Of a stretch of 37,756 nucleotides of DNA, positions 5,556-22,422 are shown piece after piece; the stretch's first letter is position 1; every line of letters begins with the position of its first letter. Source of the DNA: an uncultured virus (IMG/VR IMGVR_UViG_3300025000_000004) (taxonomy: Duplodnaviria > Heunggongvirae > Uroviricota > Caudoviricetes > Crassvirales); the IMG/VR virus record IMGVR_UViG_3300025000_000004; one strand, 5' to 3'. A program made the translations under genes and the position numbers. The notes under the pieces are model-generated. The model did not search any database. It worked only from the letters and a program-made list of their open reading frames with translations, and had not been told where the DNA came from.

Positions 5556-6599
5556 TTAAAATTTAGGATTAAAAGCATCTATTTCTATCACTCCACCGGA
5601 CTGATAGACATCGTAGGAATAGTCCCACAAATCATTTCTTACGTGCCAATCCATCTCGGCAGCAAGAGTAGTATATCCTTTATACTTCATCTTTGATATA
5701 TTTCCGTCTCTTGGTCCGTAAATCTTTGGAAAATAACCATGCTTTCCATGATAGATGTCGGACATACTCATTTTATAGATGACGGGAGGATAATATAAAC
5801 CTGAATCTGCGTATATGAATTTCGTTGGTTTTACGATATAATCTTTAATTCCTAATTCATTAATAACTTTGTCGAGTCCATAAAAATACATTGAACCCTG
5901 AATATATAATTTGTATCTCCAAAAGGCTTTCCAGAATCCCTCTGCACCTGTTTTGATATCTATTATTTCAATTTCTTTTGTCTTATGATCAATTCTGATC
6001 AAATCAATCATACCTTTGAATTTTACTTCTATTTCTTCAGGATTCTCAGAATGGGTATAAGGTAATTTAATTACCCAAGAATCCCATATTATCGGAAGTT
6101 GATGTATAATTTCAACTCCGTCCTGAGGATTAAAATAATTTTTGGTAAAAGGATTTACTTTGAGAGTATTCACAGTTTGATTTGCTGCAAACATCATCGT
6201 AGCATCAATAATTTTCTTTCCTTTTCCAAGCATAAGTGATTCATAGTAAGCTCTACCTTCAGTTTGGAATTTAGATATTACTGCACTTACACCTATTTTA
6301 AAACCGGAAGCTGCATGAGCCTTTTCATGGTCATTTGTTTCCGCAAACACTTCACAGAACTTAACCATCATTTCGCTTGATGGTTTATCGCCTGTCATCA
6401 CATAAAATTCGTCGTTAAAACTGTCTGGACTTGTTAATAAAACATCAACAACAGACCCAAAAGCGAGTCCCAAAGAGAATTCCTTCTCTTCGAGACTTGC
6501 TTTATAAGCCTGTGGTCCATCAGCTAACTTTGACAGTCTTGAGAAACTCATTGCCTGAGTATTTCTAAAGACTTCTTGAGTTACTGTTGTTATTGTCAT
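5556..6599 (-). CDS. PD-(D/E)XK exonuclease (RecE/ExoVIII-like)
   Basis: SFSRL, FGSVVD, KGMIDLI...IIDIKT and Y.IQ..MY motifs. Confidence 0.85.
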   Translation of the reverse strand: MTITTVTQEVFRNTQAMSFSRLSKLADGPQAYKASLEEKEFSLGLAFGSVVDVLLTSPDSFNDEFYVMTGDKPSSEMMVKFCEVFAETNDHEKAHAASGFKIGVSAVISKFQTEGRAYYESLMLGKGKKIIDATMMFAANQTVNTLKVNPFTKNYFNPQDGVEIIHQLPIIWDSWVIKLPYTHSENPEEIEVKFKGMIDLIRIDHKTKEIEIIDIKTGAEGFWKAFWRYKLYIQGSMYFYGLDKVINELGIKDYIVKPTKFIYADSGLYYPPVIYKMSMSDIYHGKHGYFPKIYGPRDGNISKMKYKGYTTLAAEMDWHVRNDLWDYSYDVYQSGGVIEIDAFNPKF

Positions 6600-7339
6600 A
6601 CTGTAATAGATTGAAGATTTAACGTCGTAAAGACTTTGTTTCTTGCTTTGTTTTGTGTTTTCAGCAACTCCACAACAGATGTAATATTAAGATCAACACC
6701 TTGTTTAATGAAATTACTTAAATAATTATCCGGTACAACTCGTATCTCTACAGTTCCTTGTGCTTTTTTAGTATTAAGAAAGCTTTTAAGATACATTCTT
6801 ACAGTTGAAGAATAGTTTTCCTTTAAAAATTTAACGTTTTTATCCAGTTTTTCCTTATTGACAAGAATAACGATATTATCTTCTCTTACATTCACAAAAT
6901 GACGATTCATTTCTACATGAGGATCATAACGATATGGTTTTTTCAACACTCCAAGCATAAGCACATCATAATGATCTGATCTGACAGACCATTTTGTACT
7001 GTTTGAAATTCCCAGTTTTATGTTCTCATATATAACATCTCTGAATCCAATTGCAGAATAAAATCCACTGAAAATATGAAAAGGAGTAGTACGTCCACGA
7101 TACCATCGTTTTGTCATTTTTGTTCCTGCTCCATTCGGTTCTATTCCCCATTTAAATATTCCCGTTCCCCACGCATCCATAAGGAGAGTATCTCTTATTT
7201 TTGCTGGTCTTGGAAGTACTTTTACTATAGGTATCAGATCATCATACATCACAAATTCATCGTCCCATTGAGCATAGTCAACACCTCCTCTTCCACATTG
7301 ATGATAATAAGAAGAAAATACTATAAGATTTGATCCCAT
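6596..7339 (-). CDS. Hypothetical protein immediately downstream of the E1/ThiF gene
   Basis: 247-aa ORF starting 2 nt after the ThiF stop, ATGA overlap with the exonuclease. Confidence 0.8.
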   Translation of the reverse strand: MGSNLIVFSSYYHQCGRGGVDYAQWDDEFVMYDDLIPIVKVLPRPAKIRDTLLMDAWGTGIFKWGIEPNGAGTKMTKRWYRGRTTPFHIFSGFYSAIGFRDVIYENIKLGISNSTKWSVRSDHYDVLMLGVLKKPYRYDPHVEMNRHFVNVREDNIVILVNKEKLDKNVKFLKENYSSTVRMYLKSFLNTKKAQGTVEIRVVPDNYLSNFIKQGVDLNITSVVELLKTQNKARNKVFTTLNLQSITV

Positions 7340-7341
7340 AA

Positions 7342-8031
7342 TTACTCATTTTTAATGGTTGTCAGAAATAAACCACCAATTTCCTCATAATAAAAAGGAA
7401 GTTCAGCTGTATCTCTTACAAACCAGTTAGTAAATCCTTGTACCATCTTTGCAGCGATAATTGCAGCGAAATGACTTGTCTGCTTATAACTGCAACTGAG
7501 ATTAGGAACGTCTCTGTCTTCAAAAAGATGTTTCTCATATAAAGGAATTCGTTCAGGAGTTACAAAGAAGACCTGAAGTTGTTCCGCAAGTAATCTTCCG
7601 TCAATAAATATTGATTCTTCAAATCCTGCAGCTTCGTTCTTCCATTTATCAAACATCAGTTTGCGTGATGCCATATTATCGAAAGCTGAGAACATTACAG
7701 GACTCGCAAGAGAAGATTCATCGTACCGTGATTCAGAGAAAATGGTAGCATTAGATGTAAATTCTCTCACCATTGATTTAACAGCTTGTGATTTCTGCTT
7801 ACCTACATCCGAAATTCTGTATAGTTGACCAGCAAGATTGACATCTTCAACAATATCCATATCATAGATCATGATTGGAGTATCGGAATTGACCAACCTG
7901 CTCAAAAAGAGAGTTAGCCAACTTCCGATTCCACCAACACCACCTATTATGATCGGGATTTTATATTCGTCTATTTTACTGAACCATAGAGCATCACGGA
8001 ATCTTGATTTTGTTGTATCAATCTTTCCCAT
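7342..8031 (-). CDS. ThiF/E1-like adenylyltransferase
   Basis: GGVGGIG, YDMDIVEDVNLAGQ, GKQKS, FDN..SR and FIDGR motifs; single Cys (C180). Confidence 0.92.
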   Translation of the reverse strand: MGKIDTTKSRFRDALWFSKIDEYKIPIIIGGVGGIGSWLTLFLSRLVNSDTPIMIYDMDIVEDVNLAGQLYRISDVGKQKSQAVKSMVREFTSNATIFSESRYDESSLASPVMFSAFDNMASRKLMFDKWKNEAAGFEESIFIDGRLLAEQLQVFFVTPERIPLYEKHLFEDRDVPNLSCSYKQTSHFAAIIAAKMVQGFTNWFVRDTAELPFYYEEIGGLFLTTIKNE

Positions 8032-9190
8032 AACTCGCTACTGCTTTATTGATTTGTTCAAGTTCACTATCAAGTGTTTCATACCCTTTGAAAAAAGAGT
8101 TTATCCGTTTAACAACTTCAGGTATTATTTTGTCAAATTTTGCATTGTATTTGAATCTTTGAATTGACATTATTACCTCTTTGAGTATATTTTCAAGATC
8201 ATCTTTATCAAAATGGTCTGTTTCAAAGAAAGGATTTAAAATACCTTCTATGTTATCTTCAAAATAATCATAGTAGAATTTCAATTCTTCACTGTTTGCT
8301 TCGGATAGCGTCATAAGCAACTGATAGACACTCTTTGTTTCATTCAGATTTCCATTGACGGAGAGCAGATTCTTTGTAAGACATTCAACTTCTTCTGTAC
8401 TCAATACTTCAGCAGGATCAGGCGTTTTGTTTGAACTTACGAAATTGTCGCCAAAACCATAAAGTGATTGCTGTTGTCCAGCTCCCCTTCCTTTGTACTT
8501 TTTTTCTTTACTCTTTTGCTCTATCTTTTTAAGATCTGCAGCTTGCTTTTTCTTTTCTCTGATCTGATCAATACGATTGTAGAAGAAACGATTGTTGTAT
8601 TCAAGGGCGATCACCATATTTACTACGACCAGAGTATTCTGGGTTGTTTCTTCTTTGAATTTCTTCAGTTGTCCATGATCGTCAGTATAATGCATCTGAG
8701 AAACAAGTTTCCTTTCAGAAAGAAATGCAACTTTAGCTACATAATTTCCTGAGAAGTTGACGATAAGAGAAAGATAATAGTTATGTTTGTCAACATTGAC
8801 CATGAGTTCGTCTGTATCAGTTCCACTGAAGAACGCACTCATATCGTGATGACTGTGAACATGACCAATTTTCATTTCCATTGCTCCCTCAACATTGTCA
8901 TAGAGATCAACGATGTCACCATCTGTCTCATATTCTGTAAATGCTGCAGAACCAATATCCATAAGAAATATGTGCTTTACTTTAAGCACAAAATCAGACG
9001 GTTTTGATGGATTTCCACTTACAACTTCGTAAAGAAGAAGTCCTGACCATTCTGTTTTTCCAATTGAAGCATGAAGATACATTATCTGATTAATCATCTC
9101 CATAGGTAATATCAGTCTTCCTTTAGCTTCCATCTCATAGATAGGGTAGCTAACTTTTTTTACTGTCGGATTGCTCTTTTCTGTACTCAT
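8018..9190 (-). CDS. JAB/MPN+ metallopeptidase
   Basis: EWSG...HSH-x7-S-x2-D, an intact JAMM motif; C-terminal helical extension. Confidence 0.9.
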   Translation of the reverse strand: MSTEKSNPTVKKVSYPIYEMEAKGRLILPMEMINQIMYLHASIGKTEWSGLLLYEVVSGNPSKPSDFVLKVKHIFLMDIGSAAFTEYETDGDIVDLYDNVEGAMEMKIGHVHSHHDMSAFFSGTDTDELMVNVDKHNYYLSLIVNFSGNYVAKVAFLSERKLVSQMHYTDDHGQLKKFKEETTQNTLVVVNMVIALEYNNRFFYNRIDQIREKKKQAADLKKIEQKSKEKKYKGRGAGQQQSLYGFGDNFVSSNKTPDPAEVLSTEEVECLTKNLLSVNGNLNETKSVYQLLMTLSEANSEELKFYYDYFEDNIEGILNPFFETDHFDKDDLENILKEVIMSIQRFKYNAKFDKIIPEVVKRINSFFKGYETLDSELEQINKAVASYGKD

Positions 9191-10649
9191 TTTTTTGAAT
9201 TTCTTTATTTAATAATCTTACTATTGCATCTCCAAATCTTAAATATTCCATAGGATGAAGACTAAATAATGTGTTACGCAATAAATTTTGTTCTTCTTCA
9301 CTTGATATAATTTCTGCCGGAATAATCTTTCCGTTTATATAAGAAGGTATCAGTCTTTCTTTGCGTTTCTGAACTTCTTCATGAAGATTGTCAGTTTCTC
9401 CATTACCAACCATAGCAACTGTACCTGTCAGAGAATCATATGAATATTCATTCATTCGTATTCTGAATTCCTGATCTTCATTTATCATCTTTACAATCTT
9501 TTCTGTAAAAGATTTTGGATTAAATGTAAATCTGAAATGATTTTCTTTCTTCATGAGTATGAATTCTGATTTCAACTCTTCAAGATGTTCTGGTTGTAAT
9601 AAAAAGTGAATAAGTCTGTTTCTTCTTTGTGCACTACTAATATCAGGATCTAATCTTTTTGATCTATCAAATACTGAATTTTGCCGTACTGCATCACCAA
9701 AGACACTGATAGTTTCCATTTTCTTATGAGGACCACCTTCAAGACTTTCCCAGCGTATGAAATTTTCCACTGCTAACAATAATCCTTCAAGTTGAATAGA
9801 AGATGCTTTGTAACGACCATAATCGTCTTCTCCCATAGAATCATATCTCATTCCCATAAAAATACTATCATCATGTCCAAGACAAAATCCATTGAAGTTT
9901 CTTGAAGAATCTTTTGGAAGATGTGAATGAACATAATCAGATGCTATTTCAGAAAAAGAATAAGTTGGTCTTGTTCCGCATAGATATGGGGATAATAGGA
10001 AAGTATCTTTATCTTTCTTTATTCCAAACAGATAAGTGAACAGAGTTCCTATATAATGTGATTGTTCTATAGAATTCTTAACTATTACATCTTCATGTTT
10101 AACAATAATCACGAAATTAAAAGAACGTTCGGTTTCATCATAATAGAATAGAAGATCGTAATGATCTTCATCATAATAACTACCAATTAATTCTTTCATC
10201 TCTTCAGACGTTTCTTTTACAGTATTGAAGAAATTGATATAATAATTCTGTATGTTCAGTACCTTTTTCTCATTTTGAATTCCACTATATTTGACAACAA
10301 AATCTCTTGCTTGTGATTCAAAGAATTTCTTTTTGTCTACAACAAGAAATTTTCTATTCTGGTAACTGGTAACTTCTGTATCTCTTATATAACGAAAAAG
10401 ATAATCCGGTACTAACAAACATCCTTCATGAGCATCTCCTTTATAACGAGAAGGAACTGCAATTCTCATATTCTTGTCGATAAAAAACGGCTTCATCTGT
10501 CTTCTTAAGCTGTTTGAAGTAATATAAGCTCTGGTACAAGAATCATTTGGAATAATAAAAATATCATTATCTTCACTCTGATATTCAGCAAGTGTCATTG
10601 TTGGTGTAATTACTACATCTTCTTCTAAATGTGCTATATTTTCTTCCAT
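9150..10649 (-). CDS. Putative prokaryotic E2-like (UBC-fold) protein
   Basis: HSHL-x9-GFCLG (C256) resembles the E2 HPN...G.ICL site and is followed by an amphipathic helix; lies between Ubl-like and JAB genes. Confidence 0.6.
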   Translation of the reverse strand: MEENIAHLEEDVVITPTMTLAEYQSEDNDIFIIPNDSCTRAYITSNSLRRQMKPFFIDKNMRIAVPSRYKGDAHEGCLLVPDYLFRYIRDTEVTSYQNRKFLVVDKKKFFESQARDFVVKYSGIQNEKKVLNIQNYYINFFNTVKETSEEMKELIGSYYDEDHYDLLFYYDETERSFNFVIIVKHEDVIVKNSIEQSHYIGTLFTYLFGIKKDKDTFLLSPYLCGTRPTYSFSEIASDYVHSHLPKDSSRNFNGFCLGHDDSIFMGMRYDSMGEDDYGRYKASSIQLEGLLLAVENFIRWESLEGGPHKKMETISVFGDAVRQNSVFDRSKRLDPDISSAQRRNRLIHFLLQPEHLEELKSEFILMKKENHFRFTFNPKSFTEKIVKMINEDQEFRIRMNEYSYDSLTGTVAMVGNGETDNLHEEVQKRKERLIPSYINGKIIPAEIISSEEEQNLLRNTLFSLHPMEYLRFGDAIVRLLNKEIQKNEYRKEQSDSKKS

Positions 10650-10662
10650 ATCTGTTAAAATT

Positions 10663-10693
10663 AAAAAGGCGGGACTTTATTATCCCGCCTTTT
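10663..10693 (-). terminator. Intrinsic terminator after the Ubl-like gene
   Basis: AAAAGGCGGGA/TCCCGCCTTTT inverted repeat with T-tracts on both strands. Confidence 0.8.
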
Positions 10694-10714: not shown

Positions 10715-11272
10715 TTACAGTTTCAGACAATTCTTGATCTCTGAAACTTCTTCTTCAAGGTCTTTTACAGATGTCTTAAAGACATATTCTGTTTTGTCGA
10801 CAGTCTTAGATTTTGTGCTTTCAATGATAGCGTCGATAGCTTCATTGATTTTTATCCTGCACTCTTCAATAACTGCGATCTGGTCAATTGCCTGTGCTGG
10901 AACTTCTCCGTAATAATTCTTCAGAATTGAACGAAGATCGTCAACTTTTCCGTCAAGGGAAAGTCCTGCGTTCTTAACCCTGTTCAGCATCGAGATATGA
11001 CTACGCAGATCATTATATGAACTGTTGTCAATATCAATTTTTGCTCCTGATTTTACCTTCTCAGGTACAAGGAACAGAACGAAATCTGTAGCTGGAAGAA
11101 CTGCATCGTCCATCTGCAGGGTATTCTTGGTTGATCTTTCAACGACCCTCATTCCATCCCATTTGACATCTTTGAGCTGTGCCTTAAGCTCACCAAATGT
11201 ACGTGCGTCTGATTCTATGTTGATCAGATCTTTCTGAGTCGTCAGCTTTAATGTTACATTTCTCTTACTCAT
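10715..11272 (-). CDS. Putative ubiquitin-like (beta-grasp) precursor with C-terminal extension
   Basis: Strand-strand-helix (TFGELKAQL)...LQMDDAVL...FVLFL-P-EKVKSG pattern ending at Gly76; context of E2/JAB/E1 genes. Confidence 0.6.
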   Translation of the reverse strand: MSKRNVTLKLTTQKDLINIESDARTFGELKAQLKDVKWDGMRVVERSTKNTLQMDDAVLPATDFVLFLVPEKVKSGAKIDIDNSSYNDLRSHISMLNRVKNAGLSLDGKVDDLRSILKNYYGEVPAQAIDQIAVIEECRIKINEAIDAIIESTKSKTVDKTEYVFKTSVKDLEEEVSEIKNCLKL

Positions 11273-13832: not shown

Positions 13833-14054
13833 TTAGCCTTGATAGTATTCATCTATTTTCTTTATTACAAGAAGAAGATCATTCGGAATATTTAATTCCG
13901 AAAACATACCTTTTGGCGATTTGCTCGTTGTTGAGCCGTCATTCTGAGTTATAAATCTGTATTCGAGTTTTCCTGTTTGCTGATCCTTAACGATATCTGT
14001 AAATAATACTACTGTAAACAATCCTTCAAGTGTAACTTTCTCATCCAACATCTT
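13833..14054 (-). CDS. AAA ATPase (Sak4/AAA_24-like), exon 2
   Basis: KMLDEKVTLEGLFTVVLFT...SKSPKGMF continues exon 1 in frame; spliced product is 226 aa. Confidence 0.88.
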   Translation of the reverse strand, partial: KMLDEKVTLEGLFTVVLFTDIVKDQQTGKLEYRFITQNDGSTTSKSPKGMFSELNIPNDLLLVIKKIDEYYQG

Positions 14055-14075
14055 CATATTATCCCAATATTTCTA

Positions 14076-14774
14076 TTAGGTATCGACTATATCTTTATTT
14101 TTATATTTCCAGATAAAACCTTTATAGGTTTTTAATCTACCTGTACAAGCAGATGATATATTTCCTCTGAAATAACCTGTTTGTTTTGAAGCTTCTGTAA
14201 GTGTTAAAAACGTGTTAATTAACTTAAGATTAAGATCATATTGTTCTACTCCACCATTACTTTTTTTAATAATAGTTTCAATAGAATATTTCTTACCTAA
14301 GTTTATGTTTCTTAATTTCTCTCTAGTTGCTTCTGACAATACTTTTCCTTGATGTGATTTTGATATTTTATCAGACCATTTTGAATAGTCAATTTCACCT
14401 GAATCTATTCTTCTTTTTAATGACTGTCTTCTTTTTTCTATTGATTGTTTAGAAAAAAATTGGTTTTGATTTCCATCTCCACCTTCAGTCATATTTATAA
14501 GATTAAAATTCCAATGTTTAAATTGGTTGATCCAGTATTTTTCTAACCATTCCCAATCATCATCTGTTGTTTTATCAAGTAATTCAATAACAGGTTTTAA
14601 ATCTTGCTTCAATAAGGACATTATCCAACTGTTTTTATGACTTTTATTGTCTCCTTTTTTAGCTTCACTAATATGTGATGCAAGTCGATATTCAAGTTTT
14701 GAAACTGTTTTTCCTATATATCTTATTTCTAAGATAATAGGATGTGATAATGTATAGATTTTAATTGTTTTCAT
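14076..14774 (-). CDS. Intron-encoded GIY-YIG homing endonuclease with NUMOD3/NUMOD1-like DNA-binding modules
   Basis: KIY..RYIGKT, R...H, E..WI, N motifs; SEATREKLR and C-terminal HTH...YKGFIWKY. Confidence 0.9.
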   Translation of the reverse strand: MKTIKIYTLSHPIILEIRYIGKTVSKLEYRLASHISEAKKGDNKSHKNSWIMSLLKQDLKPVIELLDKTTDDDWEWLEKYWINQFKHWNFNLINMTEGGDGNQNQFFSKQSIEKRRQSLKRRIDSGEIDYSKWSDKISKSHQGKVLSEATREKLRNINLGKKYSIETIIKKSNGGVEQYDLNLKLINTFLTLTEASKQTGYFRGNISSACTGRLKTYKGFIWKYKNKDIVDT

Positions 14775-14778
14775 CTTA

Positions 14779-14810
14779 CAAATTTAATAAAACAATTGGT
14801 AAGATGCAAG
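14779..14810 (-). promoter_or_regulatory. Intron-internal promoter for the homing endonuclease
   Basis: CTTG-N20-TAAATTTG, 4 nt before the ATG. Confidence 0.7.
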
Positions 14811-15032
14811 ATTTTATATAAAAATACTCACTGTTTCCAAATATATTTCTATAAATGTACTCTCCTTCACGGAGATAGTCTGTGAACGTTCTCCATCCTA
14901 CAGGAGCTTCGCTGCTGATTGTCCAATCTGCATAATTTTTAAACATTCATAGTATAATTTCTCTACTATTGTAGTTTATGCAGCTCTAAGAATATTCCAG
15001 CAATTAAATGAGTTTAGGCAAGTTGTTTGTTC

Positions 15033-15491
15033 ACCAATTGTTTTGATTTTTCTTTTCGGAGGATAAGTATCTACCATATTCTCATCGTGACTCAGGATGA
15101 ATACCTTCATGTTTTCTCTCAAACTCTTAGCGGTATTAATAACATCCCATGCATGACGACCAATGTCGGTAAACTTCTGCCATCCCTGTTCTGCAGAACG
15201 ATTCATAAACTCTGAACTCATGAGATACTGAAAATCATCTATCACGATGGTTTTGATCTCAGGTCTCTTTTCAGAGATATGGTTCAGTGCTTTTACGATC
15301 TTTGCAGAATCATTGCTGACATAGAAATTTCCTCCTTCCAAAGTAAAGGGAAGGTAAGCCTGTTTCCAACCCCTGAAAGGAAGCGGTTTACCAACAATGT
15401 TGATAATAACCGTTTCCTTAGGGTTGAGGCTTTCAATGGAAGTTGATTTCCCAGTACCAGTTTGACCTACTACTGCAATAATTTCACTCAT
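15033..15491 (-). CDS. AAA ATPase (Sak4/AAA_24-like), exon 1
   Basis: Walker A GQTGTGKST, Walker B IVIDD, ILSH; ends KIKTIG at the splice site. Confidence 0.9.
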
Positions 15492-16075
15492 GTTTCTAAT
15501 TTAAAAAGTTCCAACTCCAATTTGCGTGACTGTAATAACCAATCACTTTTGAAAATGCCTTTGTTTGTCTTAATGTGAATCCATTTAATTATCTCTTCAT
15601 CTATTGGTTTATCTGCGATGATTAATTGACGCAACGTACTCCTGTAAAAGTTTCCGCTACCAATATTAAAGACGAAATGACCCATTGCTAAAAGCTGAAT
15701 ATGTTCAAGATCTGTCACTTTCTGGACATATGCGATTGCACTGTCCAAATCCTGACGTAATAATCTGTCTGCTTCAGCTTCAGTTAATGGCTGGTTAAAG
15801 AACTCACTTGTTTTAATAGCGTGTCCATATCCAATTGTTAGAATTCCACCGGGACAATAATACATACTGTCCATAAATCCCTCCTGACGTTTGATTGAGT
15901 TTACAACTGTCTCATACATCTCTCTCCATTCTAACATTTGAATAAACTCTTGTAATCCTTTCTCTCTCGTTTCTTCAGTTACTGCCATACACGGAGCTAA
16001 CAGAATATTCAAGTTAATGACAAAGAACGCAAGAGTAAACAGTACACGTTTCTTAACGTTTACTCTCATAAGCAT
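15488..16075 (-). CDS. GH24 lysozyme with N-terminal hydrophobic anchor
   Basis: EG-x7-CPGGILTIGYGH, FVFNIG.G.F..STL and R..E..LF motifs; basic then hydrophobic N-terminus. Confidence 0.88.
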   Translation of the reverse strand: MLMRVNVKKRVLFTLAFFVINLNILLAPCMAVTEETREKGLQEFIQMLEWREMYETVVNSIKRQEGFMDSMYYCPGGILTIGYGHAIKTSEFFNQPLTEAEADRLLRQDLDSAIAYVQKVTDLEHIQLLAMGHFVFNIGSGNFYRSTLRQLIIADKPIDEEIIKWIHIKTNKGIFKSDWLLQSRKLELELFKLET

Positions 16076-19607: not shown

Positions 19608-20118
19608 TTAAAATAGTTTTAGTTGTCCTGAATAAACTGCATTCTTAATCTTATTCGCTTCAGCTATATAAAACGAGTAATCTATATCATAATCTTTCAT
19701 TTCTTTCTTCTCATACCTGTTGAATATTGTAGCAAGCTTTCCTACATTCAATAGGATTTCACGCCTGTCTTCAGTATTCTTTTTTAACAGTGTACTGCCT
19801 TGTTTAGAAATATAATATCTGATGGTTTTCTGTTGTCTTTCTCTGAAGCGATCTCCATCCTGAACAAATTCTCTCCATATTTCCCATCCTGCATGTGCTC
19901 TGAAACTTAAACAATAATCATATATATCAGCCTGATAGTTATTAAGTATTGTTTCTTCAATAGGAATATTGTCGAGATAATATAAATGCAGAGCTTTAGG
20001 TACAATTCTCATTGACCAATCCTTATTATATGCAATAGCTCCATTCTGCATAGGGACAATTTCAAAGCAACCTTTTGGTTTAACTTTACCTTCTGTGGTT
20101 ACAGCAAGATAATTATTT
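19608..20118 (-). CDS. Family B DNA polymerase, exon 2
   Basis: NNYLAV...K.KG.F through DIDYSFYI.EA; joins exon 1 to restore RDVNNY; spliced product is 637 aa. Confidence 0.9.
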
Positions 20119-20790
20119 CATTTCTGTTATCTCTGATTTCTCAGAGTGTCGGACTATATCTTCAATTTTAACTCTTTCTATTATTGTATTTTTATAAATA
20201 ACAATATTACTTTTCTTTTTATAAAAAGTAGCTTGTACATTTTGAAATCCTAATTCTTTTAATTGAGTATAATCAAGTAATTCATTATTTATTTTATATA
20301 AATATTTTGTTTTTAGTTTGGAAAACAATTCTGATTGTATTTTATTTCTTTCAGGATTACTTTTCCAATTAGCTGATAGTTTCTTACCGTGATCTTTTCT
20401 GATACCTTTGGACCATTCTTCTTTAAGTCTATTAGATATTTTTGTAGATGTTTCTTTATGAACTATCATTCTTGAATCTGAATCTGATCTCAAATTATAG
20501 CCATTATCTAATGAGTTATAAATACTCATCCAGTATAATTCTCGTTTAGCTACTAATTCTTCATCTTCTTCAAGATACTCTAAAACAAAATATTCAAAAT
20601 TAAATTCACCATATTTTACCCAACTTCTAAGTAGATAAATATTTTCATTATCTCTTTGATTTTTTAGATCATAGAGATGTTGATGAATTCTCTTATAAAT
20701 ATTTTTTGATTTACCGATATAAACTTTATTATTGATTAAATTTCTAATACAATAAATTCCACATCGTTGATGTTTAATGTCTGGTTTCAT
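20113..20790 (-). CDS. Intron-encoded GIY-YIG homing endonuclease
   Basis: GIYCIRN..NNKVYIGKS, R..QH, RE.YW and GYN motifs; ORF runs across the 3' splice site. Confidence 0.92.
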   Translation of the reverse strand: MKPDIKHQRCGIYCIRNLINNKVYIGKSKNIYKRIHQHLYDLKNQRDNENIYLLRSWVKYGEFNFEYFVLEYLEEDEELVAKRELYWMSIYNSLDNGYNLRSDSDSRMIVHKETSTKISNRLKEEWSKGIRKDHGKKLSANWKSNPERNKIQSELFSKLKTKYLYKINNELLDYTQLKELGFQNVQATFYKKKSNIVIYKNTIIERVKIEDIVRHSEKSEITEMK

Positions 20791-21019
20791 ACTTTTATCT
20801 TTTTGTAAAGATAAGAAATATAATTGTTAAAACCAAACAAAGTTAATAATTGCCTTGCACTTCCACACTTAAGTGTACTCTACTCACTTCCGTATTAATT
20901 TATACGTGTTTTCGATAGTCTCTGCTCCTTCCTTATTTCTAAGGCTTGGATCAGGATTGCCTTCAATATTACTTGTTAAGGTTTCCCTGAGTTCACAAGG
21001 TTAAGACGCAAATAATTCT
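20119..21019 (-). mobile_element. Group I intron (IA-like, 901 nt) in the polymerase gene
   Basis: P1 AGACGT/GCGTCT with U-G at the splice site, 8-bp P10 AATTATTT/AAATAATT, terminal G; P GAACTCAGGGAAA, Q AATCCTGA, R GCAGAGACTA, S AAGATATAGTCC. Confidence 0.93.
20806..20837 (-). promoter_or_regulatory. Intron-internal promoter (variant -7 element)
   Basis: TTTG-N20-TATCTTTA upstream of the endonuclease ATG. Confidence 0.55.
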
Positions 21020-22422
21020 ACGTCTCTTATGACCATTTTACTGTACTCTGCATATTCAAGAGTCAGTCTTGTCATTTCTTCCCATCTCTTGCATAATGAT
21101 AATAACAGATCTTTATCTGTTCTTTTGACTTTCACTGTTATACCATCTGTATTAATCTGCAACATTGTAAGATCTTTAATATTGTCAACAAATGTCTCTG
21201 CCAGTATTGATAACAATAATTGACCATTAATTGTTATTTGCATAGTATATTTGGGATCATAAAATAAGCTGAACTTATCATTTGATTTACCATATACACC
21301 ATTCAATGCAAGTTTTAATCCTGAGTTTGTTGCCTGATCTCCTTCTTTCTGAGCTTTCATCCTCTCCTCAAACAATTCTTCATATACATCTACGAACTCT
21401 GGTCCGAGATGCTGAGGATAAAATCTATTTTTAATAGCAAGATTTGGATAATATGATTTGACATCTATATCCAGTATCATGTATTCTTCATCTTCATCAT
21501 ATATTCCGGGTTCGATACAGCCGTGAATCCCACCTGTACCATAATCATATTTGAATCCTTTATATATGACTGACTTTTCAAAAGCATTATATGTAGTTTC
21601 AATTACTGTCGATTTTAAGTATTCCAATAACTCATTGAATTCTTTGGAATTGAAATAGATATAAGGTGATATACAATCTCTTAAATCTATAAAATGGCGA
21701 TATGTTCTCATATCCCTGATAAATTTATAGCTCCATTGTTTCTTGGCTGCTATCTGTCTTCCGAATATCTCCTGACCAATCTTTGGATCATTTGCATTCC
21801 TTAAATTGATATTGTATTTATGTCCGAGCTTCTTTCTCAGCTCAATCATATTTTTTGTAAGCAAATAAAATGCATATGTTGCTTCAACATCATTGAGATT
21901 ATAAGCAAGTATTAATTCTCCTTCTTCAGGTAATATTTCGTGATCAGGATCAAACGGTATGTCCTGCACATTATCAAATCTGATTGCTATTTCAACAGCT
22001 TTCAAGCTTGTATGTTTAGCTTTATTATCAAAGTGATGTATTCTGTATAAATCAAGTTGTGGTATTATTACTTCATTCTCAGGTACTGCACTATATTCTT
22101 CCTGTAATATTGAATTCATATCTTCTACAAGCAATGTATTAATCATATCAGGATCTGGTGTTATAATACCATGTGAGTATCCTTTCATCATATGCATTAG
22201 AGTATGTAATAACGGGTAATCAAAATTCACATTATTAAATCCTATTAATCCTGCTACTTCTTCATTTAAAAATTTATAATATGCTTCTATGTCGTTTCGT
22301 GGTTTAGAAATCACGAATTGTCTGATATCCTGAGGATTATCTCTATCCTTAAACGTGCAGCAATGGTAATTCTTGAACTGCTCGATATCGTAGACCCATA
22401 CTTGTTTGACATTAGTGCTCAT
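21020..22422 (-). CDS. Family B DNA polymerase, exon 1
   Basis: Exo motifs YDIE, GFNN..FD, YN.NDV; pol motifs DVKSYYP, KLALNGVYG, NTDG. Confidence 0.93.

Follow-up and report, generated by a model that had tools for sequence, protein, structure and literature searches.

A putative Ubl precursor with a helical passenger, encoded beside a predicted JAB peptidase and an E1-like enzyme in the replication block of an uncultured Crassvirales phage

A 185-residue open reading frame in the window, a 37,756-nucleotide stretch of an uncultured Crassvirales virus (IMG/VR record IMGVR_UViG_3300025000_000004), appears to encode a precursor in which a ubiquitin-type beta-grasp domain (Ubl) ends at a conserved glycine, Gly76, and is followed by a helical passenger. 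We consider it probable that a JAB peptidase encoded nearby cuts the precursor after Gly76, that the exposed glycine is activated by a neighbouring E1, and that the passenger is released. The first-pass annotation had proposed that JAB cleavage would both expose the glycine and free a second product, and this prediction drew support from the motif around the glycine, from natural fission of the gene in relatives, from intact JAB and E1 genes and from complex prediction. The pro-protein reading is well supported because the glycine is conserved, sister phages split the gene, and the peptidase and its predicted substrate form a confident modelled complex.

The precursor gene and its conserved glycine

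The Gly76 codon reads tcc on the plus strand (11045-11047), corresponding to GGA on the coding strand, and the adjoining triplet (tga at 11048-11050, TCA on the coding strand) encodes serine, giving Ser-Gly at residues 75-76 and leaving a tail of 109 residues (185-76), within which SYNDLRSHI...LSLDGKVDDLRSILK corresponds to residues 85-118. The layout originally described for this reading frame, a putative beta-grasp ending at Ser-Gly76 and then a 109-residue helical extension, was upheld by the sequence and by an AlphaFold2 (AF2) model. The parts of the gene are as follows.

10715..11272, minus strand: Ubl-passenger precursor gene (open reading frame, 185 aa plus stop)
11045..11272, minus strand: ubiquitin-type beta-grasp, residues 1-76, with the tail PEKVKSG at 70-76 (AF2, Foldseek, VIA)
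11045..11047, minus strand: Gly76 codon (GGA), encoding the residue after which JAB is proposed to cut (P1) and which would then be the substrate of E1 (sequence and homologue conservation)
11018..11044, minus strand: variable linker, residues 77-85 (length spread in homologues, pLDDT about 60)
10913..11017, minus strand: conserved helix-loop-helix module, residues 86-120, YNDLRS...G...DLR...YY (AF2 and conservation)
10883..10912, minus strand: flexible spacer, residues 121-130 (pLDDT below 50 at residues 125-129)
10718..10882, minus strand: C-terminal helices, residues 131-185, the last a conserved amphipathic helix (AF2 and conservation)

Homologues of the 185-residue protein numbered 144 at E<=1e-3, and a wider search placed the Ubl family at 1220 representative clusters (clustered at 50% identity). 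Conservation of Gly76 was far beyond chance: all 120 close homologues have it, and of the 149 sequences that represent clusters at 50% identity, 147 have glycine in this column. The first-pass annotation had staked cleavage on conservation of this residue, and the homologue alignment bore it out, with glycine in 275 of 279 collected sequences (hmmalign-based count); the four without an aligned glycine were three fragments (P0122, P0123 and P0133) and one protein, P0232, in which KSAG is shifted by one residue. Among 63 distant sequences, P60, P70 and G76 were the sole invariant columns, and the motif P-x-K-x-K-[SA]-G was nearly invariant across Ubl homologues. The residue preceding the glycine was serine in 217, alanine in 39 and glycine in 9 of the 275, while the residue directly after it (P1') took 18 different identities. 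The linker that follows is often Lys-rich and spans 2-17 residues among close homologues, reaching more than 30 in distant members. No protein among the 279 homologues ended exactly at the glycine, and the residue at the actual C-terminus varies across the family, with L, Y, I, F, G and D each seen. Across the family the glycine lies anywhere from position 69 to 100, with a mode of 76 (97 of 275), and the number 76 is therefore a coincidence of this lineage, as had been suspected from its match to ubiquitin's numbering.

The fold was examined with an AF2 model built on an alignment of 88 homologues (mean pLDDT 79.1, pTM 0.40), and a single-sequence AlphaFold model of the same protein (pLDDT 45) was set aside. 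The N-terminal domain consisted of strands at 4-10, 17-21, 41-45 and 64-70 and a helix at 26-32, with pLDDT of 77-89 over residues 1-70; the linker block (71-80) was of low confidence (pLDDT 60), and the passenger contained helices at 86-99, 110-120, 131-154 and 169-182. When compared with the PDB by Foldseek, ubiquitin and ubiquitin variants were the top matches (best E 6.9e-4), with a TM by target of 0.65-0.69 and an rmsd of 2.2-2.4 A across about 76 columns, at some 21% identity. VIA-align gave Z scores of 7.0-8.9 over residues 1-75, with ubiquitin-superfamily domains in 50 of the 50 rows shown, DIX and UBX domains at the top (Z 8.4-8.9) and MoaD structures among the matches (Z 7.2-7.8). 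Residues 1-75 thus model as a ubiquitin-type beta-grasp. A profile search of PDB sequences with the whole protein returned nothing meaningful, and the Ubl had no match in PADLOC or NCBIfam.

Split genes in sister phages and the neighbouring peptidase

A direct search with the window protein found just three shorter relatives, two of them on short contigs and apparently clipped by contig ends, and the third a 48-aa N-terminal piece; stand-alone Ubl forms surfaced only with a query from a distant subfamily. When ten loci of this sister subfamily were scanned, using a 6-sequence alignment as query, the Ubl reading frame was found to stop 1-4 codons past the glycine in seven of them (five distinct sequences), the proteins ending in KVKSGK (L023 and L026), KVKSGR (L024 and L025), KVKSGTSI (L022) or KTKSGLINQ (L030 and L031). 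Each early-stopping frame was followed by a small separate reading frame encoding a helical protein of 39-56 aa, and in three distinct sequences the two frames overlapped at stop and start (TAATG). Eleven of 13 database matches to the short form were likewise reading frames of 75-88 aa, which ended one residue (8 cases) or three residues (3 cases) past the glycine. The family forms a series, from an end at Gly+1 with a separate small reading frame, through short tails and the 109-aa tail of the window protein, to tails of about 240 aa. Homology of the split-form small reading frames to the fused tails is not established, since a short shared motif was visible and phmmer gave a single weak match (E 0.0018). 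The position of the gene break in these relatives suggests that the neighbouring protease cuts at the same place.

Downstream of the precursor gene lie the other components of the module.

10664..10693, minus strand: intrinsic-terminator-like hairpin with a T-run, separating the Ubl gene from p499 (folding)
9150..10649, minus strand: p499, a conserved protein outside known families (next gene in every locus reached)
8018..9190, minus strand: JAB/JAMM metallopeptidase in the N-terminal ~180 aa, then a C-terminal domain with no assigned function (Prok-JAB match and motif)
7342..8031, minus strand: minimal E1-like ThiF-family adenylyltransferase, 229 aa (Pfam ThiF)
6596..7339, minus strand: p247, the product of a downstream module gene with weak conservation (open reading frame)

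The putative JAB assignment was made from a sub-threshold Pfam match and a motif. Prok-JAB matched in 11 of 11 JAB homologues with a best E of 7.6e-4, below the Pfam cut-off, and the JAMM motif E...HxH(x7)S(xx)D is intact (E47, H112, H114, S122 and D125), all five residues and H110 being invariant in the 11 sequences; a profile search of PDB sequences with the JAB family returned nothing meaningful. We then modelled JAB residues 1-185 with Ubl residues 1-90 and zinc, alongside three controls. The JAB-Ubl complex scored 0.73 (runs of 0.76, 0.73 and 0.69) compared with 0.26 for the best of the three controls. In calibration, 116 of 157 solved complexes reached the mark that this score passes, as did 2 of 215 mismatched pairs; the present job departs from that calibration in using its own alignments and in carrying zinc. 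At least 74% of contacts were common to the runs, and partner pLDDT was at least 80. The confident contacts joined JAB residues 47, 49-51, 110, 112 and 124-125 to Ubl residues 69-76, and the predicted complex placed this Ubl tail against E47, H110, H112 and D125. The pass may echo the model's memory of solved JAMM-ubiquitin complexes.

In the mechanism that we propose, the precursor comprises a Ubl modifier (residues 1-76), the variable linker and the conserved helical passenger, with residues 77-185 as the fused unit. JAB, encoded two genes downstream, would bind the beta-grasp, thread the PEKVKSG tail into its zinc site and cut the Gly76-Ala77 bond, leaving a C-terminal fragment that would begin AKIDID, a step favoured by both the comparative evidence and the modelling. 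From what is typical of its family, the minimal ThiF-type E1 would then adenylate the freed Gly76 carboxylate, and may hold the Ubl on its invariant Cys180. More speculatively, the Ubl might be transferred onto lysine residues of phage or host proteins, either directly and E2-free as in archaeal sampylation, for which no E2 is recognisable, or with the aid of p499. The passenger, freed in equal amounts, would act alone, and might serve as an adaptor, in oligomerisation or in association with nucleic acids.

Activation, the passenger and alternative readings

The E1 is a single 229-aa domain that matched Pfam ThiF above the cut-off (1e-13), and its best named matches were NCBIfam ThiF/ThiS adenylyltransferases (1.8e-13, below the cut-off); G30, G31, G33, G34, D57, D59, K80, D118, R123 and C180 were invariant in eight sequences. 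The neighbouring p499 had no match in Pfam, PADLOC, NCBIfam or the PDB, and in the ESM Atlas all TM scores were below 0.35, its own model being poor (pLDDT 0.33). Its invariant residues are N192, S193, E195, G225, Y239, H241, S242, H243, F255, C256 and G258, together with W300-P307 and E312. The idea that p499 is a degenerate JAB paralogue was rejected because hhalign gave a probability of 0.6% against the JAB family; p499 might act in conjugation or be a target itself. The last gene, p247, followed E1 in six of the loci reaching that far and had no family match in Pfam, PADLOC or NCBIfam, and no E2-like protein was found by sequence in the module with the same three collections.

In an alternative reading, after the same cut, Ubl(1-76) would serve as a ThiS/MoaD-type sulfur carrier, its E1-adenylated end becoming a thiocarboxylate from which p499 would use the sulfur for thio-modification of a nucleotide, DNA or a cofactor during phage replication. 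JAB trimming of sulfur carriers is known from QbsD/QbsE and Mec+/CysO, and the small E1 with its ThiF/ThiS matches, the failure to find an E2, the MoaD fold matches, the invariant His-x-His and Cys of p499, and the placement of the module among replication genes all fit this explanation. We regard it as unlikely: the terminus is K-S-G rather than the Gly-Gly of sulfur carriers, with a penultimate glycine in just 9 of 275 sequences, the top Foldseek matches are to ubiquitin itself, and the scan of reading frames in the window turned up neither a rhodanese nor a cysteine desulfurase, nor any enzyme known to insert sulfur, and no thiamine or Moco genes.

The passenger was examined for recognisable folds. 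In the AF2 model it consists of four helices only, without a UBC fold, and neither Pfam nor PADLOC gave a UBC or E2 family match, including when the 88 homologues were compared with Pfam. Helices 86-99 and 110-120 are joined by a loop with an invariant G108 (AF2 and a 15-sequence alignment), and in the same number of sequences the helix-loop-helix module has invariant Y, N, R, S, S, L, N, K, G and Y. The resemblance of the tail to a SAP/HeH module, remarked on in the first-pass annotation, comes down to this helix-loop-helix shape and gained no significant profile match: Pfam gave no SAP/HeH match for the window protein at E<=0.1, the only such family to appear among the 88 homologues was SAP_new25 (2 of 88, best E 0.0085, not significant), searching the PDB by profile with the 42-residue module brought up nothing of relevance (best E 0.66), and the ESM Atlas gave no usable match to the tail. 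Longer homologues (P0100, P0113 and P0102) carry K/A/E-rich insertions at the spacer (121-130), and in the C-terminal helices I135, E136, N143, D147, L172, E175 and L183 were conserved at 90% or more.

The expectation that homologues would combine a conserved glycine with variable tails was thus confirmed for the glycine and its motif and failed for the tail, which is well conserved within the subfamily of the window protein, where Y86, N87, R90, S91, L96 and N97 are invariant. Since the tail is always present and conserved in this subfamily, its fusion to the Ubl could matter in the intact state. In a second alternative reading the protein is not cleaved and acts as a two-domain factor, with the beta-grasp as a docking module in the style of UBX, DIX or Ubl domains, and JAB and E1 have other substrates. 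The retention of the fusion in every member of the subfamily, the absence of any homologue ending at the glycine, and the rank of DIX and UBX, which are never conjugated, at the top of the VIA matches agree with such a factor. We nevertheless think it quite unlikely, because a seven-residue unstructured tail ending in an invariant glycine lacks an obvious role in a docking domain, because sister phages that keep both JAB and E1 split the gene 1-4 codons past that glycine, and because E1 requires a free C-terminal carboxylate, yet the last residue of the full-length proteins varies.

The gene order of the sister phages (primase, Ubl, p499, JAB, E1) was the same as that found here. Among close loci, p499 was present in 14 of 14, JAB in 13 of 13 and E1 in 11 of 11 of those reachable, and among sister loci the counts were 10 of 10, 9 of 10 and 8 of 10, the shortfalls being at contig ends. 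Cultured Flavobacterium psychrophilum phages keep this order, as do contigs from groundwater and other environments; in the cultured relative FpV4 the module corresponds to gp53, gp52, gp51 and gp50, with gp53 as the precursor. All 15 sequencing runs listed were DNA, from groundwater or soil metagenomes, with no RNA run among them. The module is fixed within the replication block in phages whose Ubls share about 25-35% identity; it is a fixed feature of this phage lineage and lies in the replication and recombination block. A fixed position in the replication block across such divergent phages, cultured Flavobacterium phages included, is typical of a core function and not of an accessory anti-defence gene, and deconjugation alone needs no complete set of Ubl and E1, which together make it improbable that the module mainly interferes with host Ubl immunity (Bil, Bub, type II CBASS), with JAB stripping host conjugates off phage proteins or the phage Ubl acting as a decoy, even though E1 had weak PADLOC matches to CBASS E1-E2 (6.4e-8) and to BilD (1.3e-3, residues 36-126) and bacterial Ubl systems are described, in the available text of PMC11601603, as acting in phage defence.

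Comparison with known systems and wider meaning

In eukaryotes, ubiquitin itself is made as a fusion to functional passengers (UBA52, RPS27A, FUBI-S30) that are freed by a protease after its C-terminal glycine; these fusions give a 1:1 output, are cut by cysteine DUBs, carry ribosomal passengers and follow no operon logic. The predicted phage mechanism has a proven bacterial precedent in Type I Bub, where BubCD cuts the BubAB pre-protein just past G229 (PMC11601596; Ye, Gong, Chambers, Corbett). As far as the available text of that paper describes, the two are alike in that the Ubl forms the front of a longer protein, which the operon's own JAB/JAMM cuts directly after a conserved glycine (here predicted), so that one gene yields a Ubl ready for activation together with another protein that has a function of its own (again predicted for the phage). 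The Bub passenger is an E2 (BubB, 133 aa), whereas the phage passenger is all-helical with no E2 features; JAB is fused to E1 in Bub, whereas in the phage the two are separate genes and E1 keeps its invariant Cys; and Bub is bacterial and linked to defence regulators, in contrast to the replication-block gene set of the phage.

In Type II Bil, again from the available portion of the source, a bacterial Ubl has its reactive glycine laid bare by JAB, which is also able to cleave a linear Ubl-GFP fusion, BilC cutting BilA-GFP after G97 (PMC10557695; Chambers et al.). The split or short phage Ubls (Gly+1 to Gly+4) resemble BilA, which extends up to nine residues past its glycine. The Bil extension is only a few residues, in contrast to the conserved 109-aa domain of the phage protein, and the E1 of Bil is multidomain and its E2 of the CEHH type, whereas PADLOC detected no enzyme of either kind in the phage module. 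PADLOC also gave no match at all for p499, p247, JAB or Ubl, and membership of Bil was rejected: no BilB/CEHH E2 was detected, E1 is a single 229-aa domain, and the match to BilD has an E of 1.3e-3. Membership of the ThiS/MoaD sulfur carriers was likewise rejected, with Gly-Gly lacking (G in 9 of 275) and no sulfur-transfer genes among the scanned reading frames.

The TAPI proteins of lambda and T1, in the text available, are phage Ubls with a conserved terminal glycine, a linker and a small C-terminal domain, and their release by the adjoining JAB of TAPK is itself a prediction (Iyer, Burroughs, Aravind 2006; PMC1779556). TAPI belongs to a tail-assembly module without E1, in contrast to the present module, which lies among replication genes and includes E1. 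The archaeal SAMP/UbaA/HvJAMM1 set (PMC4443979) resembles the phage module in its small size (a Ubl, a single-domain E1 and a JAMM), and its type of E1 can serve either conjugation or sulfur transfer. SAMPs end in Gly-Gly, have no large passenger and are cellular, and the phage Ubl differs in all three respects. The PRTRC cassette of mobile elements similarly places a JAB-like protein and one of the ThiF family together, close to genes that handle DNA. Matches to it were weak (NCBIfam TIGR03735 and TIGR03736; JAB 0.006, E1 1.3e-7) and fell well short of the curated cut-offs (for JAB, 16.2 against 101.8 bits; for E1, 31.2 against 144.75 bits), neither ParB nor any other PRTRC protein was found, and membership was rejected.

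Prokaryotic Ubl conjugation has so far been studied as bacterial anti-phage defence (Bil, Bub, type II CBASS), whereas here the substrate and the enzyme set are, in full, phage-encoded. A broader reading, which we put forward tentatively, is that a large lineage of tailed phages, which includes FpV4-like Flavobacterium phages and numerous relatives from the environment (more than 1000 clusters at 50% identity), carries an E2-less Ubl tagging system fixed in its replication/recombination module, with the Ubl delivered as a precursor, the passenger as a separate, stoichiometric effector (speculatively, a replisome- or DNA-associated adaptor marking what gets tagged) and p499, with its core of His-x-His...Cys...WESLEGGP, as a new Ubl-conjugating or Ubl-using enzyme. 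Protein tagging, or Ubl-borne sulfur chemistry, would then be a normal step of phage DNA replication and not of host defence. Our literature search, with subscription-only papers outside its coverage, found no account of a Ubl/JAB/E1 module in FpV4-like or crAss-like phages, and if the cut is confirmed this would be the first virus-encoded Ubl maturation/activation pathway among prokaryotic viruses in the literature searched, raising the questions of what the phage tags during replication and what the freed passenger does. The precursor and the natural fission series offer an experimental handle, with one predicted bond and the enzyme two genes away.

The hairpin that separates the precursor gene from p499 has a 12-bp stem with 6 GC pairs (-24.1 kcal/mol), and as a terminator it would probably raise precursor mRNA above the mRNAs of the enzymes. 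An equivalent hairpin, of different sequence, was found in 10 of the 14 related loci that were folded.

The beta-grasp domain and its C-terminal glycine

The Ubl gene is a 185-aa ORF (window 10715-11272, minus strand) in which residue 76 is glycine (codon GGA; tcc on the plus strand at 11045-11047), with Ser75 before it and 109 residues, among them the stretch SYNDLRSHI...DDLRSILK, after it. The ORF call and codon reading agree exactly with the first-pass annotation, which had placed a Ser-Gly at residue 76 ahead of a 109-residue extension and read the product as a pro-protein. Since a single-sequence AlphaFold model was unusable (pLDDT 45), the fold was modelled from an 88-sequence subfamily alignment. 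The resulting AlphaFold2 model (mean pLDDT 79.1, pTM 0.40) has strands at 4-10, 17-21, 41-45 and 64-70 and a helix at 26-32, followed by passenger helices at 86-99, 110-120, 131-154 and 169-182; block 71-80 is poorly ordered (pLDDT 60), and residues 125-129 fall below 50. Ubiquitin and engineered ubiquitin variants were the top Foldseek matches in the PDB (TM by target 0.65-0.69, rmsd 2.2-2.4 Å, ∼76 columns, ∼21% identity), with just two at E ≤ 1e-3, as expected because 40% of the query was matched. A VIA-align comparison with 48,161 chains gave Z of 7.0-8.9 over residues 1-75, and all of the best 50 rows were ubiquitin-superfamily domains (DIX, UBX, ubiquitin, FAT10, MoaD). As modelled, then, the N-terminal part folds as a ubiquitin-type beta-grasp and ends in the seven-residue tail PEKVKSG.

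Conservation of the tail was evaluated at two depths. A word-indexed search returned 144 homologues, and in the alignment of the best 120 of these, G76, P70 and K74 were each invariant, K72 and V73 were kept in 119 and E71 in 115, and positions 77-79 were variable and gapped. The linker from the glycine to the next conserved motif, YN[DE]xRS, spanned 2-17 residues and was often Lys-rich. When 1.84 billion cluster representatives were searched exhaustively with a profile, 1220 proteins matched at E ≤ 1e-3 (385 at E ≤ 1e-10). In an alignment of 149 proteins (143 newly returned representatives and six earlier ones, P0001 among them) 147 had G in the glycine column; of the other two, one had A and one, a fragment, had a gap. 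Glycine was present in 275 of the 279 collected proteins, the other four being three fragments lacking the region and one KSAG, shifted by one residue, and 18 different identities occurred at the following residue. Among 63 distant members, with a mean column identity of 22%, the only invariant columns were the equivalents of P60, P70 and G76. Judged from these alignments, conservation of Gly76 is beyond chance. Its position ranged from 69 to 100, with the mode, 76, in 97 of 275, so the match to ubiquitin numbering is a coincidence, as the annotator had suspected.

Gene neighbourhood and the predicted JAB-Ubl complex

The same-strand gene order is p253, primase (PHROG match 6.1e-36), RusA-like resolvase, Ubl gene, p499, JAB, E1, p247 and RecE-like exonuclease; the remainder of the window holds a phage replication block, then terminase and portal genes. 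Synteny was examined in Flavobacterium phage FpV4 and 20 IMG/VR loci, seven of whose contigs stop at or just past the Ubl gene. In all 14 loci that continue, p499 came next, and JAB and E1 were present in 13/13 and 11/11 loci reaching further; across these sequences the order Ubl-p499-JAB-E1 is fixed. Relatives in culture belong to the FpV4 group of Flavobacterium psychrophilum phages (29 records; 36% identity across residues 2-93). FpV4 carries these four genes as gp53, gp52, gp51 and gp50; gp53 retains ...QVKSGG..., and the annotation of gp50 reads 'thiamine biosynthesis protein'. The p499 and JAB genes overlap by 41 bases (9150-9190) and JAB and E1 by 14 (8018-8031), consistent with translational coupling of the three enzyme genes. 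Two close homologues, P0022 and P0026, are labelled by NCBI as Candidatus Heimdallarchaeaceae MAG proteins; because of the phage synteny elsewhere, they are probably phage contigs misbinned into archaeal MAGs.

A hairpin was found directly behind the precursor gene:

10664-10693, minus strand: strong, terminator-like hairpin and T-run, 12-bp stem, -24.1 kcal/mol, in the 65-base gap 3' of the Ubl gene

Of the 14 related loci whose gaps were folded, 10, FpV4 among them, had a hairpin of differing sequence at the same position (intergenic gaps of L001, L003-L005, L007, L009-L011, L015 and L019). The 17-base gap of L012 had none, and in L016, L017 and L021 the gap folded was shortened by the ORF call. 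In L022-L029, comparable GC-rich inverted repeats, each with a T-run after it, can be seen by eye behind the Ubl gene or the small ORF. The arrangement suggests that precursor mRNA may be made in excess over the p499, JAB and E1 mRNAs.

The catalytic motifs of both enzymes are intact. JAB (390 aa) matched Prok-JAB weakly (window copy 1e-3), as did 11/11 homologues (best E 7.6e-4), all under the cut-off, and its JAMM signature, E47 with H112-x-H114-x7-S122-xx-D125, is invariant. E1 (229 aa) matched Pfam ThiF above the cut-off (1e-13), and its nucleotide-binding glycines (G30, G31, G33, G34), together with D57, D59, K80, D118, R123 and a Cys at 180, were kept in 8/8 aligned homologues. Searches of Pfam, PHROG, PADLOC, NCBIfam, PDB and ESM Atlas detected no family for p499, which is 360-719 aa long among relatives, always next after the Ubl gene. 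Its core (residues ∼190-315) carries invariant Y-x-H-S-H, F-C-x-G and WESLEGGP motifs; the invariant residues are N192, S193, E195, G225, Y239, H241, S242, H243, F255, C256, G258, W300ESLEGGP307 and E312. The His...Cys spacing may loosely recall an E2 active-site region. In an hhalign comparison p499 did not come out as a JAB paralogue.

A complex of JAB 1-185, Ubl 1-90 and a zinc ion was predicted with a score of 0.73 (runs 0.76, 0.73 and 0.69), the best of three controls scoring 0.26; in calibration 116 of 157 solved complexes attained that mark, as did 2 of 215 mismatched pairs, figures that are approximate here given the custom alignments and zinc. The runs shared at least 74% of contacts, with partner pLDDT of at least 80. 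The confident interface joins JAB 47, 49-51, 110, 112 and 124-125, among others, to Ubl 69-76, and also includes Ubl sheet surface 9-14, 40-51 and 67, with residues 77-90 absent. The model thus puts the Ubl tail, through Gly76, at the JAB catalytic site. The prediction supports JAB-Ubl binding short of proof, as the score may reflect model memory of solved JAMM-ubiquitin complexes.

The reading we consider probable is that JAB would cleave the precursor behind Gly76, that the ThiF-type E1 would adenylate the new C-terminus and the Ubl then be transferred, and that the passenger would be freed in equal amount for a role of its own. The same maturation could instead supply a ThiS/MoaD-like sulfur carrier, which the minimal, ThiF-like E1 and the lack of a detected E2 would suit; with a Ubl ending in K-S-G and no sulfur-transfer genes among the window's ORFs scanned, we regard this as unlikely.

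Loci split behind the glycine and the conserved passenger

A scan of viral contigs for a distant subfamily (six-sequence alignment) yielded 10 loci that have, as far as their contigs reach, the order primase...Ubl-p499-JAB-E1. In seven of them (five distinct sequences) the Ubl ORF stops 1-4 codons past the glycine.

Ends of the Ubl ORF at the split loci
L023: ...KVKSGK (stop)
L024 and L025: ...KVKSGR (stop)
L026: ...KVKSGK (stop)
L022: ...KVKSGTSI (stop)
L030 and L031: ...KTKSGLINQ (stop)

A separate ORF of 39-56 residues comes next, starting in a TAATG stop/start overlap (L023, L024/L025, L026) or 14 (L022) or 9 (L030) bases downstream of the Ubl stop. The tail is fused in L027 and L028, with just 21-23 residues, and full in L029. 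When the 75-aa form of L023 was searched against a 5.8-billion-protein collection, 11 of the 13 matches, on contigs as long as 50 kb, were complete 75-88-aa ORFs with their ends at Gly+1 (eight) or Gly+3 (three); the others were an N-terminal fragment and a 128-aa tailed form. By eye, an alignment of the small ORFs with the first residues of the short fused tails shows approximately V-E-E-H-Y/M-x-x-L, a hydrophobic residue and D in both, a motif without statistical support (a single phmmer match, E 0.0018). The series, in which JAB and E1 are kept, indicates that the gene has repeatedly been broken or joined right behind the glycine, the pattern that a functional C-terminus at the glycine and a separable passenger would produce. 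That the protein instead remains uncleaved, with two domains, is more doubtful still than a sulfur carrier, given this series and the invariant unstructured tail. Least probable is a counter-defence device, since the position in the replication block is fixed across very divergent phages.

By sequence comparison, the passenger is conserved, not variable, within the subfamily. Y86, N87, R90, S91, L96 and N97 are invariant in the 88-sequence alignment, and H92, S94, A102, G108, L113, Y120, I135, E136, N143, D147, L172, E175 and L183 are at least 90% conserved; of the conserved glycine with variable tails proposed for homologues, the glycine stood and the variable tails did not. Over the family at large the central part of the tail shifts in type, for example to acidic linkers, and an amphipathic helix recurs at the extreme C-terminus, the last residue not being conserved. 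Longer homologues (228-318 aa) have K/A/E-rich low-complexity insertions between helices 110-120 and 131-154. In P0100, P0113 and P0102 (239-318 aa) Lys/Ala/Pro/Glu-rich insertions resemble histone-H1-like tails; the window copy lacks them. The likeness to SAP/HeH modules seen at first reading is not confirmed. Residues 86-120 form a helix-loop-helix with an invariant loop glycine (model and alignment), but Pfam SAP, HeH, LEM and Rho_N did not match the window protein, SAP_new25 matched just 2 of 88 homologues (E 0.0085), a profile of the 42-residue module had no relevant match in the PDB, and ESM Atlas returned nothing for the tail. The window tail is acidic (pI 5.0), which disfavours DNA binding by this copy; Lys-rich forms elsewhere might bind nucleic acids. 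Corrected on three points (a coincidental residue number, a conserved tail and an unproven SAP label), the interpretation of the first-pass annotation is supported.

Known systems and other features of the window

The classic example of one gene giving two products is the eukaryotic fusion of ubiquitin to a ribosomal protein. Direct precedents exist for the proposed JAB maturation. In Type I Bub, the Ubl-E2 fusion BubAB is cleaved directly behind G229 by the BubCD JAB domain, as established with active-site mutants and Edman sequencing (PMC11601596). In Type II Bil, BilA-GFP is cleaved by BilC after G97, and BilA homologues have up to nine residues beyond the glycine (PMC10557695). Release of the lambda TAPI Ubl domain from its C-terminal domain by JAB was predicted by Iyer et al., 2006 (PMC1779556). 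The present passenger, unlike that of BubAB, is not an E2; neither the Bil-type E2 nor the multidomain E1 was detected here (PADLOC); and, in contrast to TAPI, the gene lies outside any tail module. Scores against PRTRC were far under NCBIfam cut-offs. The Ubl precursor does not belong to any of these families. A literature search outside subscription-only papers found no description of a phage Ubl-p499-JAB-E1 module; the phage family is large and apparently undescribed, the mechanism itself being already known from Bub. The predicted cut after Gly76 merits a simple cleavage experiment.

Two genes elsewhere in the window appear to be split. For the DNA polymerase (19608-22422, minus strand), 21001-22422 encodes the N-terminal part (PHROG 1252, 4.1e-127, profile positions 50-500) and 19608-20051 the C-terminal part (positions 524-647 of the same profile), with a GIY-YIG homing endonuclease ORF between them (20113-20790). 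For a Sak4-like annealing protein (13833-15491, minus strand), 14976-15491 likewise encodes the N-terminal part (PHROG 2872, profile positions 1-150) and 13833-14057 the C-terminal part (positions 147-212), on either side of a homing-endonuclease ORF at 14076-14774. Within the replication block, the helicase and Sak4 genes flank an endolysin-like gene (15488-16075, minus strand; PHROG 7, 1.2e-22).
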